A DNA stretch of 64,000 nucleotides from Escherichia coli (GTDB lineage: Bacteria > Pseudomonadota > Gammaproteobacteria > Enterobacterales > Enterobacteriaceae): NCBI RefSeq assembly GCF_045037415.1, contig NZ_CP173438.1. The stretch is one strand, 5' to 3'. Shown here piece by piece: positions 45,020 through 49,111 of the stretch. Both the position numbers and the translations under genes were made by a program. A model generated the notes under the pieces. It was not told the DNA's origin. It saw only the letters and a program-made list of their open reading frames with translations, and ran no database searches. The stretch's first letter is position 1; each line of letters opens with the position of its first letter.

Positions 45020-46415
45020 TTACGCCGCACCGTCCTTTTTAACTTCTCGCCAGATTCGCCATGCCATAAACGCCAGAACGGCAACGCCAAGTATTAACGC
45101 CCCCCACACCAGCAGCGTTTTCCACTGACTTTGTTGTTCGGCTGCCGACGTCGCCGTTAGTCGCAATTCACCGCCGAGAGTTACGCTCTCCTGCGGTATA
45201 GCCCACGGCAGATTATCTATCTCCTGCGTTTTACGCAGCGACGCAGGGATCAACATATCGAGTCCAACATCGGCCTTTTTCGCCGCCCGGTTTCCCCACG
45301 CCAGCATGTAAGGACCTTTGCCTTGCGTGTTAAAAACCAGTTGATAACTGTCGCGCGCACCGCTCAATGCTGGCAATGCCTCCGGCAATCGCGCATTAAT
45401 TGTACGTATTCGAACAGCCTCAACTAACTGGCCAGGAAGACGAATATCTTCTGAACGCTTCCCGTCCAGGCGATACAACACCGTTTTTGTCAGTGACTGC
45501 CAGGGTTCTTTTTCGCCGCTGCGCCAGACCAGTTCCACCGGTAAAACGCCTTCATTTTCCAGATCGATCCGCAACGATGTCAGGGGCTGCGGCTGTGTCC
45601 ATCGCCAGACGGCTTCATCATCCGACACCTTATCCGCCCGAGCGCCAATCACAATACGTTCGGACTCCGGCTCATTACTGTCAGCAATAGCGCTCACGCT
45701 GTTTAACGTCAGTGCCGGGCTTTGCGAGTTGAGGATCACCAGCAGGTAGCGATTTCCTTCAAGTGACAATGTCAGGTTGGTGCTGATGGCGTCCATTTTC
45801 AGACGATCGCTATCCCGCGTCAGATCCATTAACGGCGCATCTTCCTGCACGGGTCGCCAGTAGCGTAAATCACGGCTGACATAAACCGAGGCTTTCCCCT
45901 GCCAGTTGCCCGTCGGCGTCCCCCAGTTCAGACGCAATTGCGTCAGTGAAAGAGAGTCTTTCCTCTCTTCCGGCAACGTCAGTAAATAGCTCTGCCCGAG
46001 CGCAGTGACATCATCGCTTTGCAAATGAATTTCAATACCGTTTTTTGAACGTAAAACAACAGCATCCCCACTACGTTGACCCTCATCACGCGGCGGAACC
46101 GGCGACATATCAAGCGGGAAAAGACGCAGAGCCACTGTCTCTGGCGTAACGGTCTGGGTTTTCTGCGCCACCAGCGCAAACGGCACCATATCCCCCAGAT
46201 GGTTAAAAACCCGCACATCGCGCAAATCCGGCCATGCAGTGCTCTGATACACCACCTGCGGCAGCGAAATGCGATACCAGGGCGAATGCCCCCGTGGTTT
46301 CCAGCGCGACGCCTGTTGCGTAGTCCGTTGGCGCTTCCTTCACTTCATCGCTGCTGACCGCCGCGCCCGCAGTACTCAGTAGCACGCTGCATAACACCGC
46401 TTTCATCCATTTCAT
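45020..46415 (-). pseudogene. secreted/membrane-anchored protein (DUF3999-like partner of the upstream membrane protein), frameshifted in a G5 run
   Basis: Signal-peptide start MKWMKAVLCSVLLSTAGAA at 46415 overlaps the upstream stop (ATGA); the frame shifts near a G5 run (about 46286-46297) into the 411-aa ORF 45020..46255, which ends with a C-terminal TM helix. Confidence 0.55.
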
Positions 46416-49111
46416 TTTTCTTCTCCCGCTTTGGGCGGTAACGGTGAAAAATACCCGACGATTAGCACCAGAATTGCCACGCCGATAAACGTGACCGCGC
46501 GTGCCAGGCCGCCGCCACGCGCACTGTCTACCAACATCAGTTTCACAATAACAATCCCTAACAATACGGATCCACAAAGCCATTCGCGACGTGAGCAACG
46601 CCGGGTCGCACGTAGCATCACCACTAATGCCGCCAGCATCCAGAACAGGGCAAAACAGGTCTGAATCAGCCGCGAATGCCACAGTGTTTCCGCGCTCCAG
46701 GGCACTTCGCCGTACCAGGCCAATGCGCGCAGCAGGATGCCATTCAGCCACCAGAAGCTAAGCGCCAGCAGTGCAATGAGCGGCCAGGGACGGCATACCG
46801 AAATCTGCACCGGGAAAAAGCGCTGCGAAACGCGATAAAATACAATGAGTCCCAGTAGCGCAAAAGCGGCCCCCTCCTCCAGTGGATTCACCAGCGGCAG
46901 CCAGGTCTGGCGATAAACTACGCCATCCTGCAAATTCGTCAGTACTAGCAGAACAACCAATACCGCAGCTACCGGTATCATCGCCTGAGAAGCGTAGAGT
47001 GCGGGCCAGCTTCGGAATGGCCATAGCTGACGATGAACCGCCTCATGAACGAGAAAGATGAGCAGGCCCCCCGCGGCCATCATCAGGCCGGAGCCCCACG
47101 CCGCCATGCCCCATGGCAGATCTTGCGCAAACCAGAATAGCTCCGCCGCCAGCGCGAGCAGAATCATCCAGAAGAGTGAAAGGTGCGCCAGTCTGGAGAG
47201 GCGCGGCGGCAACGTCTCAGCATCACGCCAGAGCAATGCCCCCGCAGCGGGTAACGCCAGACACCAGGCCAGATTCTGCCAGCCCGCAGCAAAAATCTCA
47301 TGTTGTGAAATTTGAGACAGCAGCATCACCAGCATCGTCGGCCACAGCAACCATTTGCTGACATCCAGCTCCCACCAGGCCAGACGACCAGAGACAATCC
47401 GCCAGCCCCAGACCGATATCGCCATTAACGCCAGCACGCCAGACAGCACCAGCGAGTCCTTTTTCAGCACCAGTTGCGATGCCCCAATGAGCGCGATTAT
47501 CCAGAAGATCAAACCGCCAGCCAACAGAACCCAACTACCCTGCAACTGAATATTGCGCCACAGCCAGGCGGCAGCCAGCCAGCTGAGGCTGAGTACGGCA
47601 AAGATTAGCACCAGAGAAAGCGCGCTCATCCCGTTCATCTGCGCCCACAGCGCGCTGCACACTGCCAGCACCAGCAGCGCAGTGCCGCTATAGCTCATAC
47701 GCCGCTGCTGCTGTTGCACGCCCAGCCAGAGGATGCCGAGACCTTCCAGCGCCCAGGCCATCGCCGTCCAGCGGGCCGAAAGCGCCAGTGGGATAGCGAG
47801 CGTGGTAAATGCCCCACCCAGCGCCAGCGCCGCCAGCACCAGCGGCCTCCCCAAAGAGGGATAGCGACGCAATGCAAGCCATGCTAACGCCAGATAGAAA
47901 CCGCCGTAACCCAGCGCGCTAAGCGCCGGACCATATTCCATATGCCGGGTTATGGCGTACTGCATGCCAAAACCGACCAGCGGCGATGCAAACAACAGCA
48001 CGCCATCAATAATCTGCTTACCTTTCTCCTGTGCTCGTAGCGATAGCGCCACGCTCAGCACACCAAAAATGATCGTATTGGCTATCAGGAAAAGCTGACT
48101 GCTCAGGTAATACTCTGATCGATAGCCGTCGAGTCCCCAAAGACCGCCGATACCAAAGGTAAATAACAGGCCAAGCAGATTAAGCTCGCGCCAGTGTTGC
48201 CAGATGCTGATGGCGAGAATACCGACGGAAAGCAGAAGGTAGAAAGAGAAGAGCGCCACATGACTACCGCCGCCGGTGGAAAGCAACAGCGGTGCCAGAT
48301 AGCCACCGATACTTGCCAGCATCGCGAGGCTGAGCGCTTTTTGCATAATCGCCAGTCCCACGCTCGCCGCGCAAATCGCCACCAGTAATGCAAACGCCAG
48401 CGTCATCGGCAGCATCTGCCAGAGCCAGAATGCGCCAAAAACGGTGAGATAGAGCGTCCCCGTAGCTCCACCCTGTATGATCAGCGCATAAACCAGCTGT
48501 TTATGCCGCAATCGCCAGCCCACTACCAGCAGGGCAATCGCAAACAGCGAAGTCGCCACCAGACGTAGCTCAAGCGGGAACAGGGAGTGTTCAACCGTAT
48601 AACGCAGCAGGAAGGAGAAGCCAAGGAAGAGAAGCAGAATACCCAGCTTTGCCAGCGGGTTGCCCTGCATAAACCAGCGCACCAGGGACGACATCACCCC
48701 ACCAAAAGCGGAAGATTGTTCGACCGCTGGTGTGGGTAGCGCCTCGTTTTGCGGCTTCGGTTGTGGACGCCAGGGGTCAACGGACTCAGGCGTGACATCA
48801 GCCACAGGCTCCGACAGCACGATGTTAACCGCAGGCGAAGACGTTTCAACAGGCACAACCATCTGCGAAACACTCTGCGGCACAGTTGTTACCACTGTGG
48901 CGGGTGCTTCAGTCACACCGCGCTGCTCAAGCACCTCCACCCGGCGACGCAGGGTCGCCAGCTCAGAACGAACAGCCGTGCTGCGGCTGAGCGCGATAAT
49001 CGCGAGGATGGGAACCACCACCAGTGCGAAGAATAAAGCAATGCAGCCAAGGGTTAGCAGCTCATCCATGTTTCCACCGTCGCGGTATAAAGATGGGTCA
49101 GAATGACACAA
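46412..49111 (-). CDS. large polytopic membrane protein (DUF2339-like)
   Basis: 899-aa ORF, highly hydrophobic with more than 20 predicted TM segments and an N-terminal coiled region (LATLRRRVEVLEQR); possible start at the internal Met MDELL; family assignment is by resemblance only. Confidence 0.6.
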   Translation of the reverse strand: MCHSDPSLYRDGGNMDELLTLGCIALFFALVVVPILAIIALSRSTAVRSELATLRRRVEVLEQRGVTEAPATVVTTVPQSVSQMVVPVETSSPAVNIVLSEPVADVTPESVDPWRPQPKPQNEALPTPAVEQSSAFGGVMSSLVRWFMQGNPLAKLGILLLFLGFSFLLRYTVEHSLFPLELRLVATSLFAIALLVVGWRLRHKQLVYALIIQGGATGTLYLTVFGAFWLWQMLPMTLAFALLVAICAASVGLAIMQKALSLAMLASIGGYLAPLLLSTGGGSHVALFSFYLLLSVGILAISIWQHWRELNLLGLLFTFGIGGLWGLDGYRSEYYLSSQLFLIANTIIFGVLSVALSLRAQEKGKQIIDGVLLFASPLVGFGMQYAITRHMEYGPALSALGYGGFYLALAWLALRRYPSLGRPLVLAALALGGAFTTLAIPLALSARWTAMAWALEGLGILWLGVQQQQRRMSYSGTALLVLAVCSALWAQMNGMSALSLVLIFAVLSLSWLAAAWLWRNIQLQGSWVLLAGGLIFWIIALIGASQLVLKKDSLVLSGVLALMAISVWGWRIVSGRLAWWELDVSKWLLWPTMLVMLLSQISQHEIFAAGWQNLAWCLALPAAGALLWRDAETLPPRLSRLAHLSLFWMILLALAAELFWFAQDLPWGMAAWGSGLMMAAGGLLIFLVHEAVHRQLWPFRSWPALYASQAMIPVAAVLVVLLVLTNLQDGVVYRQTWLPLVNPLEEGAAFALLGLIVFYRVSQRFFPVQISVCRPWPLIALLALSFWWLNGILLRALAWYGEVPWSAETLWHSRLIQTCFALFWMLAALVVMLRATRRCSRREWLCGSVLLGIVIVKLMLVDSARGGGLARAVTFIGVAILVLIVGYFSPLPPKAGEEK

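Follow-up and report, generated by a model that had tools for sequence, protein, structure and literature searches.

The point of reference for this locus is the Arc3A-Arc3B pair of Pseudomonas aeruginosa (PA5114/PA5113), homologs of which were traced by Ting et al. (eLife 2022, PMC8926400) through PF10101 and PF13163, exactly the two Pfam families found here. [quoted passage not shown] Ting et al. further describe that Arc3B co-immunoprecipitates with Arc3A and that deleting arc3B makes no detectable difference in pairwise competition, that heterologous Arc3A proteins, one of them from C. rodentium, restore defence without a cognate Arc3B, and that many bacteria carry Arc3A without Arc3B. Protection by Arc3A also extends to V. 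cholerae TseL and A. baylyi Tle1 (bioRxiv 10.1101/2024.10.26.620397).

We analyzed a window of 64,000 nucleotides from an Escherichia coli contig (NZ_CP173438.1), which carries the following two-gene module:

46412..49069, minus strand: arc3A, an intact gene for a DUF2339 polytopic inner-membrane protein of 885 aa (PF10101; RefSeq WP_000343920.1).
45020..46415, minus strand: arc3B pseudogene (DUF3999), labelled 'frameshifted' by PGAP and matching PF13163 after removal of one T.
46412..46415, minus strand: ATGA overlap of the arc3A stop TGA (46412-46414) with the arc3B start ATG (46413-46415), from the sequence and the RefSeq CDS.
46359..46415, minus strand: putative Arc3B signal peptide, MKWMKAVLCSVLLSTAGAA, from the sequence and a model helix at residues 2-17.
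45050..45124, minus strand: predicted Arc3B C-terminal TM anchor (repaired residues ~431-455), then a short basic tail; AF2 helix 424-461.

Profile searches bear out the DUF2339/DUF3999 pairing proposed by the initial annotation, and the overlap of stop and start that it described is present in the sequence. PF10101 (DUF2339) matches Arc3A twice (E = 5.3e-107 and 1.8e-47, residues 135-878), and the product of arc3B repaired by removal of one T matches PF13163 (DUF3999; E = 1.5e-107, residues 30-453). The module had been called one of unknown function; instead, its family is Arc3A/Arc3B, whose role in defence against T6SS phospholipase toxins has been characterised experimentally (PMC8926400; bioRxiv 10.1101/2024.10.26.620397). 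By family and published description, the P. aeruginosa system likewise has adjacent, co-oriented genes that encode a giant polytopic protein and a periplasmic partner that is bitopic, its TM anchor lying at the C-terminus. As in P. aeruginosa, the large protein lacks obvious catalytic residues, with no His, Asp, Ser or Cys among the invariant alignment columns.

The two systems also differ. PA5114 is reported to have 35 TM helices, whereas ~27 are predicted for Arc3A here; Arc3B is predicted to be lipidated at its N-terminus in P. aeruginosa, whereas the signal peptide of enterobacterial Arc3B is an ordinary one that lacks a lipobox; and arc3 in P. aeruginosa is an operon of the core genome, adjacent to estA and under Gac/Rsm control, whereas the module here sits on a mobile island. 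Unlike its P. aeruginosa counterpart, arc3B is not intact here, as a 1-nt insertion shifts its frame and leaves a 70-aa product. Since Arc3A-only organisms exist, the missing Arc3B is compatible with a functional Arc3A. LplT/Aas of E. coli, like Arc3A, limits envelope damage by phospholipase A products, but it is unrelated to Arc3A in sequence and fold, and P. aeruginosa Arc3A regenerates no PE from LPE.

A close ortholog among the tested members of the family is the C. rodentium DUF2339 protein encoded beside a DUF3999 gene, on the assumption that this protein is the paper's TA05_RS00690. The C. rodentium Arc3A and Arc3B are each 75% identical to those of the window (over the full length for Arc3A), and the pair also matches in lengths, in the ATGA overlap and in the SD region close to the start. 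It is intact and occupies a core position in the chromosome, flanked by malZ and an ahpC-like gene/acpH, unlike the E. coli copy, an island-borne xenolog. The same pair with the same 4-nt overlap occurs in Citrobacter-type chromosomes (L003, L004, L006 and L007), which agrees with the earlier description of a conserved two-gene membrane module.

The large ORF had been described as 899 aa long and hydrophobic along its whole length. The hydrophobicity is confirmed by the ~27 predicted TM helices, and an 899-aa ORF (46412..49111) is present on the minus strand, opening at an upstream TTG, but the conserved start gives 885 aa. We prefer this ATG at 49069, also used by RefSeq, because the ortholog alignment begins at residue 1 and the SD region upstream is common to the orthologs. 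The N-terminus comprises a predicted TM segment with a long helix (residues 2-51) and a Pro-rich disordered linker (~53-120), and ~26 further TM helices are predicted in residues 138-874; hydrophobic segments number ~25-27, and the AF2 model (pLDDT 80.9) has 1 + 26 long helices. When four segments of the protein were compared profile against profile, no convincing internal repeat emerged (probabilities ≤14%), and a profile search of Arc3A against PDB sequences gave no significant match (best E 0.026). Neither NCBIfam nor PADLOC gave a match for Arc3A or Arc3B. The dN/dS of arc3A against its orthologs is 0.13-0.17, and the window branch counts 54 synonymous and 14 nonsynonymous changes, figures that indicate that purifying selection on this branch is strong. 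A CsrA/RsmA-type motif, CANGGAYG, a lead to possible post-transcriptional (Csr) control, spans the arc3A start codon (49063-49070) and is kept in the orthologs; its frequency in the window is at chance level (21 found, 16.8 expected), and its conservation is explicable by the Met-Asp coding sequence.

As initially described, the second gene opens with the signal peptide, changes frame and runs on as a 411-aa ORF (45020..46255) ending in a TM helix. The signal peptide resembles those of the Sec/SPase I type: the residues before Cys9 (AVL-C) form no lipobox, and Cys9 itself is replaced by W or V in some orthologs. Conserved positions of the anchor are W437, L440, G443, L447 and W455. The product as written comprises the signal peptide, 24 native and 27 out-of-frame residues; frame 0 stops at 46203-46205, and the remaining 420 codons are open in the +1 frame. 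Repaired Arc3B has 464 aa, as do intact orthologs with which it aligns free of internal gaps; the 60 intact homologs that we aligned have lengths of ~454-469 aa. Arc3B, and not Arc3A, resembles galactose-binding-domain-like beta-sandwiches (CBM32, F5/8 type C/discoidin, fucolectin) at the level of fold, with 5-15% identity and no sequence-level match, a resemblance of fold and not family membership; its profile search against PDB sequences gave no significant match (best E 0.68).

To place the frameshift, we set the DNA and codons of the site against those of five intact Citrobacter-type orthologs, which distinguishes two neighbouring features:

46285..46286, minus strand: TT dinucleotide holding the extra T (ancestral GCA TCG to GCA TTCG), from comparison with the five intact orthologs.
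46289..46293, minus strand: G5 run, the product of a synonymous GGC to GGG change in a Gly codon and not the indel site, from ortholog DNA and codon comparison.

The initial annotation had located the frameshift in the G5 run. However, all five intact orthologs read GGC (G/A)CA TCG CCN TGG where the window reads GGG GCA T TCG CCC TGG, so that the extra base is instead the T at 46285/46286, 3 nt downstream of the run. Without this T, the frame again reads ...LETTGASPWYRISLPQ..., exactly as in the closest ortholog. The alternative repair, removal of a G, was rejected, as it needs four more substitutions and produces a His found in 0 of 12 aligned orthologs.

Slippage, decay and read error had each been offered as the origin of the frameshift, and only decay stands. 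Over 50 nt around the site, the locus-bearing complete E. coli genomes, a set with many different strain names and sources, are identical in 506 of 506 cases. Because independent complete genomes agree at the site, a read error is excluded; because they show no variation and the indel lies in TT and not in the G run, so is phase-variable slippage. The frameshift is neither. A sequencing or assembly error in the window, which the nearby homopolymer run might have invited, thus has a practically negligible chance of being the explanation, given that hundreds of complete assemblies from varied strains and sources share the sequence and that the same split gene is called in draft and Logan assemblies. 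It is also very improbable that the frameshift is a switch, by slippage phase variation or programmed +1 ribosomal frameshifting, through which full-length Arc3B is sometimes made. The proximity of the G5 run and the 420 open downstream codons would suit such a switch, but the inserted base lies outside the run, the carriers are invariant, and all orthologs are in frame (five at the DNA level). Moreover, there is no stop or rare codon for ribosome stalling at the site, where frame 0 continues for 27 codons, and the youth of the pseudogene accounts for the downstream frame still being open.

The case for youth comes from the rest of the gene. We found no arc3B lesion besides the extra T and no excess of amino-acid changes: synonymous and nonsynonymous counts are 47/24 on the window branch versus 49/35 on the intact branch of L002, a metagenome-derived contig that is the closest sampled relative (88% DNA identity, with one gap in 3 kb). 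As arc3B is otherwise free of lesions and its constraint is not relaxed, it is, judging from these comparisons, a young pseudogene, made by one extra T and fixed in every carrier. In strain STO_Bone4, a second G5 run (46192-46196) has one G fewer; this loss follows the frame-0 stop and so does not rescue arc3B.

Among complete E. coli genomes, ~9% have the locus, and several of these are labelled O25b:H4 or ST131. They form a nearly clonal set, with identities of at least 99%, and a spread sample of the 506 was 100% identical throughout, except for one 98%-covered record. The proposed search for an intact second gene in other genomes succeeded for Citrobacter-type chromosomes and failed within E. 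coli, where no T-less arc3B allele, nor any other allele, was found among the carriers. Sporadic variants of arc3A do occur, namely in-frame deletions of 56-58 aa between short direct repeats (L008-L010) and truncations in single E. coli records (P0125, P0142, P0169 and P0171), and strain AR_0104 has an ISEc23 insertion directly upstream. Most listed carriers come from human sources, blood and bone infection included. Matches labelled 'plasmid', that of strain STO_Bone4 among them, were set aside as evidence of plasmid carriage, since they are 360-540-kb non-mobilizable records. The RefSeq annotation of the locus already agrees on an intact gene with a frameshifted neighbour. Outside E. coli, a truncated arc3B homolog in Klebsiella grimontii was discarded because neighbouring genes are also fragmented, indicating assembly errors, and one further candidate case of arc3B loss comes from a metagenome.

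The module was captured as a Citrobacter-like segment of 4.2 kb (5' region, arc3A and arc3B) with borders at 49231 and 45007; homology to L003 and L006 begins at 49230/49231. Its surroundings contain the following features:

49070..49231, minus strand: non-coding region upstream of arc3A, co-captured, with a conserved GGTGGA SD; homologous to the Citrobacter-type intergenic region.
49264..49888, minus strand: transposase remnant (HTH_38/IS30-like) directly upstream of the segment, 'frameshifted, incomplete' in RefSeq, with PF13936 in L009 and L010.
42129..44344, no strand assigned: downstream IS material, from RefSeq annotation of a 100%-identical locus, consisting of the next three elements.
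42129-43264: ISEc24 (IS3 family), RefSeq annotation mapped to the window.
43887-44255: IstB-like ATP-binding fragment, RefSeq annotation mapped to the window.
44192-44344: IS91 fragment, RefSeq annotation mapped to the window.

IS fragments thus lie on both flanks, as the initial annotation had noted. The host island is ~27 kb long, bears an integrase and lies between ychF and dhaR; it also holds Lamassu (a PADLOC match of neighbouring genes) and an Ec67-type retron. A literature search did not find this island in ST131 papers.

From these data, we consider it likely that E. coli gained this locus, an arc3 (antagonism resistance cluster 3) module, by horizontal transfer and that its Arc3A is protective. 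By analogy with the described systems, Arc3A, as an inner-membrane protein of ~27 helices, would shield the cell from T6SS-delivered phospholipase A toxins of rivals, and would do so by stopping the accumulation of lysophospholipids (LPE, monolysocardiolipin) independently of LplT/Aas repair. Proposed mechanisms are that it may sequester lysophospholipids or interfere with the lipase in its unusually dense helix array. Arc3B would be bitopic, exposing discoidin/CBM32-like beta-sandwiches to the periplasm and fixed in the membrane by its C-terminal anchor, and would bind Arc3A in an auxiliary role. If Arc3B is merely auxiliary, its loss here probably leaves the main defence working, but enterobacterial Arc3A might depend on Arc3B more than Pseudomonas Arc3A does.

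An unlikely alternative is that the whole module is inert, decaying cargo, with arc3A unexpressed or non-functional without Arc3B and lesions not yet gathered in a young clone. The dead partner gene, the position wedged between IS remnants and the sporadic deletions, truncations and upstream insertion are in keeping with this, and the near-clonality of the carriers means that the intactness of arc3A says little about selection within E. coli. Arguing against it are the capture of the module with its own upstream region, the predominance of synonymous changes on the arc3A branch, the near-uniform identity of the spread sample, and the reports of Ting et al. (PMC8926400) of Arc3A working without cognate Arc3B in a heterologous host and of many Arc3A-only bacteria. 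The deletions and truncations of arc3A in a few assemblies are compatible with weak selection, which tells against the protective reading.

It is less probable still that the chief targets of Arc3A are phospholipases and lysophospholipids of host or environmental origin (e.g., secreted PLA2, in the gut or urinary tract) and not T6SS lipases. Ting et al. (PMC8926400) regard environmental and endogenous lysophospholipids as a possible standing threat and point to the protection that LplT/Aas gives E. coli against host PLA2, and the human origin of most listed carriers would fit. However, the experimental phenotypes so far all concern T6SS lipase effectors (PMC8926400; bioRxiv 10.1101/2024.10.26.620397), and, as Ting et al. 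report, Arc3A does not affect LPE stability in P. aeruginosa absent antagonism.

Returning to defence against T6SS lipases as our preferred reading, we tentatively extend it to a broader proposal that is possible, though we would not call it probable: Arc3A alone may be an active anti-phospholipase shield in an ST131-type lineage, through one mobile island mixing anti-phage systems (Lamassu, Ec67-type retron) with non-immunity defence against T6SS lipases, such that loss of Arc3B would be neutral or advantageous and the island would aid the gut competition of the clone.

The locus is otherwise ordinary, a known and annotated pseudogene beside an intact gene. What the comparison would provide is a functional label, defence against competitors' phospholipase toxins, for an E. 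coli locus that databases still describe as DUF2339/DUF3999. It would also indicate that a mobile island can spread such a defence alongside anti-phage systems, and it would make this E. coli locus a natural 'Arc3A-only' case for gauging the contribution of Arc3B.

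The two genes of this locus lie on the minus strand:

46412-49069, minus strand, arc3A, DUF2339 gene, 885 aa
45020-46415, minus strand, arc3B, DUF3999 gene, frameshifted

The gene pair, ATGA overlap, signal peptide, frame change and C-terminal anchor described in the initial annotation are all present in the sequence. The 899-aa ORF proposed for the membrane protein also exists (46412..49111, minus strand, counted from TTG), but we place the arc3A start at the ATG at 49069 (885 aa, the RefSeq choice), because orthologs align from Met1 and keep the GGTGGA Shine-Dalgarno and the sequence just 5' of this codon. 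The arc3A TGA overlaps the arc3B ATG at 46412-46415, and arc3B begins with a signal peptide (MKWMKAVLCSVLLSTAGAA). Its frame 0 stays open over 70 codons and closes at a TAA (46203-46205); the remaining 420 codons, with a TM helix at their end, are open in the +1 frame as far as 45020. PGAP labels the 100%-identical RefSeq locus 'DUF2339 domain-containing protein' followed by 'DUF3999 domain-containing protein, frameshifted'.

Profile searches bore out the earlier family guess: Arc3A matched PF10101 (DUF2339; E 5e-107), and repaired Arc3B (464 aa, one T removed at 46285/46286) matched PF13163 (DUF3999; E 1.5e-107) over its whole length. We found no NCBIfam or PADLOC model for either protein. 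A full-text search for DUF2339/DUF3999 brought up a paper by Ting et al. (eLife 2022, PMC8926400), which describes a function for a pair first annotated as of unknown function. In that paper, PA5114/PA5113 of P. aeruginosa are arc3A/arc3B ('antagonism resistance cluster 3'), with homologs traced by exactly Pfam 10101 and Pfam 13163. There, Arc3A is the main cellular protection of P. aeruginosa against the B. thailandensis T6SS phospholipase Tle3; its action does not depend on LplT/Aas repair, and without Arc3A lysophosphatidylethanolamine and monolysocardiolipin build up. The authors also report that Arc3A and Arc3B co-immunoprecipitate, that arc3B deletion caused no detectable defect in pairwise competition, and that Arc3A homologs from other species, Citrobacter rodentium included, restored defense to a P. 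aeruginosa arc3A mutant. In a later preprint (10.1101/2024.10.26.620397), a CRISPRi screen recovered arc3A again, and the gene was shown to protect cells from TseL of V. cholerae and Tle1 of A. baylyi.

The Arc3A model (pLDDT 80.9) contains an N-terminal TM segment running on as a long helix (2-51), a Pro-rich disordered linker (53-120) and 26 more long helices; Ting et al. suggest that such closely packed helices may work by sequestering lysophospholipids or by interfering with the lipase. His, Asp, Ser and Cys are absent among the residues invariant in the family, in agreement with the published remark that catalytic residues are not evident. The family is very large (9,195 representatives; 50% clustering, E <= 0.001), and some members are long enough for A-B fusions, judged by length alone. 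In the Arc3B model (pLDDT 80.8), the signal peptide forms a helix, beta-sandwich domains cover residues ~34-373, and a TM helix closes the C-terminus; whereas lipidation is predicted for Pseudomonas Arc3B, we found no lipobox in Arc3B of the window.

The arc3A start codon sits within CATGGATG (49063-49070, minus strand), which fits the RsmA/CsrA-type consensus CANGGAYG, and its Shine-Dalgarno holds a second GGA; both GGA sites are kept in Citrobacter-type orthologs. Matches to this consensus are about as frequent in the window as chance predicts (21 against 16.8), so possible Csr control, which would parallel Gac/Rsm regulation of arc3 in Pseudomonas, is only a lead.

Since frame 0 must shift +1 to reach the rest of the protein, arc3B has one surplus base. 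At this site, the sequence is GGC (G/A)CA TCG CCN TGG in each of the five intact orthologs and GGG GCA T TCG CCC TGG in the window. Two events explain the difference most cheaply: a synonymous GGC-to-GGG change, which gave rise to the G5 run (46289-46293), and one T inserted at 46285/46286. With one T taken out the protein reads ...LETTGASPWYRISLPQ..., the same as the closest ortholog; taking out a G instead requires four extra substitutions and a His seen in none of 12 aligned orthologs. The shift, previously assigned to the G5 run, thus adjoins that run and lies outside it. A second G5 run (CTGGGGGAT; 46192-46196, minus strand) lies ~90 nt 3' of the frameshift and has only four G in E. coli STO_Bone4 (CP054248.1), whether as a second lesion or through misassembly of the homopolymer; as the run is past the frame-0 stop, the four-G version cannot restore Arc3B.

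Of 5,426 complete E. coli genomes, 506 carry the arc3 locus (505 of them on a chromosome), always at 99% identity or above, and the names of several include O25b:H4 or ST131. When the 50 nt centered on the frameshift were used as a query, every carrier matched at 99% or better, so the site itself is identical in all 506 and the T insertion is fixed among them. Draft assemblies of the island show the same split (70 aa plus ~400 aa). Phase-variable slippage and read error, both raised initially, are ruled out by this invariance, the latter also by the drafts. Programmed frameshifting is unlikely, because the orthologs keep one reading frame and a stall signal is lacking at the site.

An intact pair, which the initial annotation suggested seeking in other genomes, occurs in Citrobacter-type chromosomes, but none was found in E. 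coli; a sensitive blastn found no other E. coli arc3 allele, and a protein search found no intact Arc3B closer than 84% identity. The closest intact proteins (82-84% identity to repaired Arc3B) come from genomes labeled Citrobacter farmeri or Citrobacter sp. and from unlabeled metagenome assemblies. Over its full length Arc3A shares 75% identity with a C. rodentium DUF2339 protein, and repaired Arc3B shares 75% with the product of the neighboring gene. In Citrobacter-type chromosomes the pair, always with the same 4-nt overlap, occupies a core site, preceded by malZ in C. rodentium and by an amidohydrolase gene in other loci and followed by an ahpC-like gene and acpH. Window homology to these chromosomes is limited to 49231-45007, indicating that a 4.2-kb piece was captured, in which arc3A and arc3B kept their native upstream region. 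In Klebsiella grimontii GCA_900461515.1 (locus L014), arc3A, arc3B and the ahpC-like gene are all fragmented, most likely reflecting an error-rich assembly rather than biology.

Against L002, the closest sampled relative (a metagenome-derived contig with intact arc3B; 88% DNA identity), the only gap in 3 kb is the frameshift. Codon changes in arc3B number 47 synonymous and 24 nonsynonymous on the window branch and 49 and 35 on the intact L002 branch (arc3A branch: 54 and 14), and pairwise dN/dS of arc3B (0.12-0.22) is similar to that of arc3A (0.12-0.17). By these sequence comparisons, arc3B evolved under purifying selection through nearly its entire history, and the T insertion is recent.

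We mapped the surroundings from RefSeq annotation of NZ_AP018784.2 (window coordinate = record coordinate - 2,693,392) and by PADLOC:

39537-40628, ychF (RefSeq mapped)
40843-42018, tyrosine integrase, after ychF (RefSeq mapped)
after the integrase, ISEc24, then IstB and IS91 fragments (RefSeq mapped)
44340-44537, minus strand, small ORF, 65 aa, strongly hydrophobic (RefSeq hypothetical protein)
44696-44833, plus strand, small ORF, 45 aa (RefSeq hypothetical protein)
after arc3B and arc3A in order, transposase remnant, then hypothetical genes (RefSeq mapped)
50066-51463, minus strand, 465-aa ORF directly upstream of the transposase remnant
54472-55401, minus strand, second tyrosine recombinase
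55448-55900, minus strand, RadC
56483-56875, minus strand, DUF2787 protein
60268-62154, minus strand, LmuB (Lamassu; PADLOC E 4e-176)
62156-62671, minus strand, LmuC (Lamassu; PADLOC E 4e-57)
62668-63783, minus strand, LmuA (Lamassu; PADLOC E 1e-105)

Both small ORFs are flanked by arc3B and the IS fragments and fall outside the Citrobacter-homologous segment. In RefSeq the 465-aa ORF appears as a shorter hypothetical protein (381 aa); PADLOC gave no match for it, and precomputed Pfam results for related assemblies gave none either. The second recombinase with RadC, DUF2787 and a nearby AlpA-type regulator suggests a composite island, in which one integrative element is nested in another or stands in tandem with it. 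The three Lamassu genes share one orientation (60268-63783). LmuB is a 'hypothetical protein' in RefSeq, whose label for the other two is 'ABC-three component system' protein, with 'middle component 2' for the middle one. Past the window end, the matching genome carries an Ec67-type retron reverse transcriptase/endonuclease, IS5 and then dhaR. With Lamassu and the retron nearby, the arc3 module sits in a ~27-kb defense island.

The main rival reading is that the whole arc3 module is drifting cargo, and sporadic lesions in or near arc3A lend it some support. Single E. coli records encode truncated Arc3A proteins. Island assemblies L008/L009 and L010 carry in-frame arc3A deletions of 56 and 58 codons (829- and 827-aa products; ~47678-47846 and ~47267-47441, minus strand), each bounded by short direct repeats (CTGGTGCTGGC... 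and TGTCTGGCG...), and each would take out roughly two TM helices. In strain AR_0104 (locus L012, NZ_CP020116.1), an inserted ISEc23 (IS66 family) separates the transposase remnant from the arc3A start codon; it falls in the putative promoter/5' region (window ~49070-49200), with the arc3A coding sequence intact. From our analysis as a whole, we consider it most likely that arc3A is intact and possibly functional and that its accessory partner arc3B was recently inactivated; by extension from other species, Arc3A would be expressed in E. coli and may protect it.
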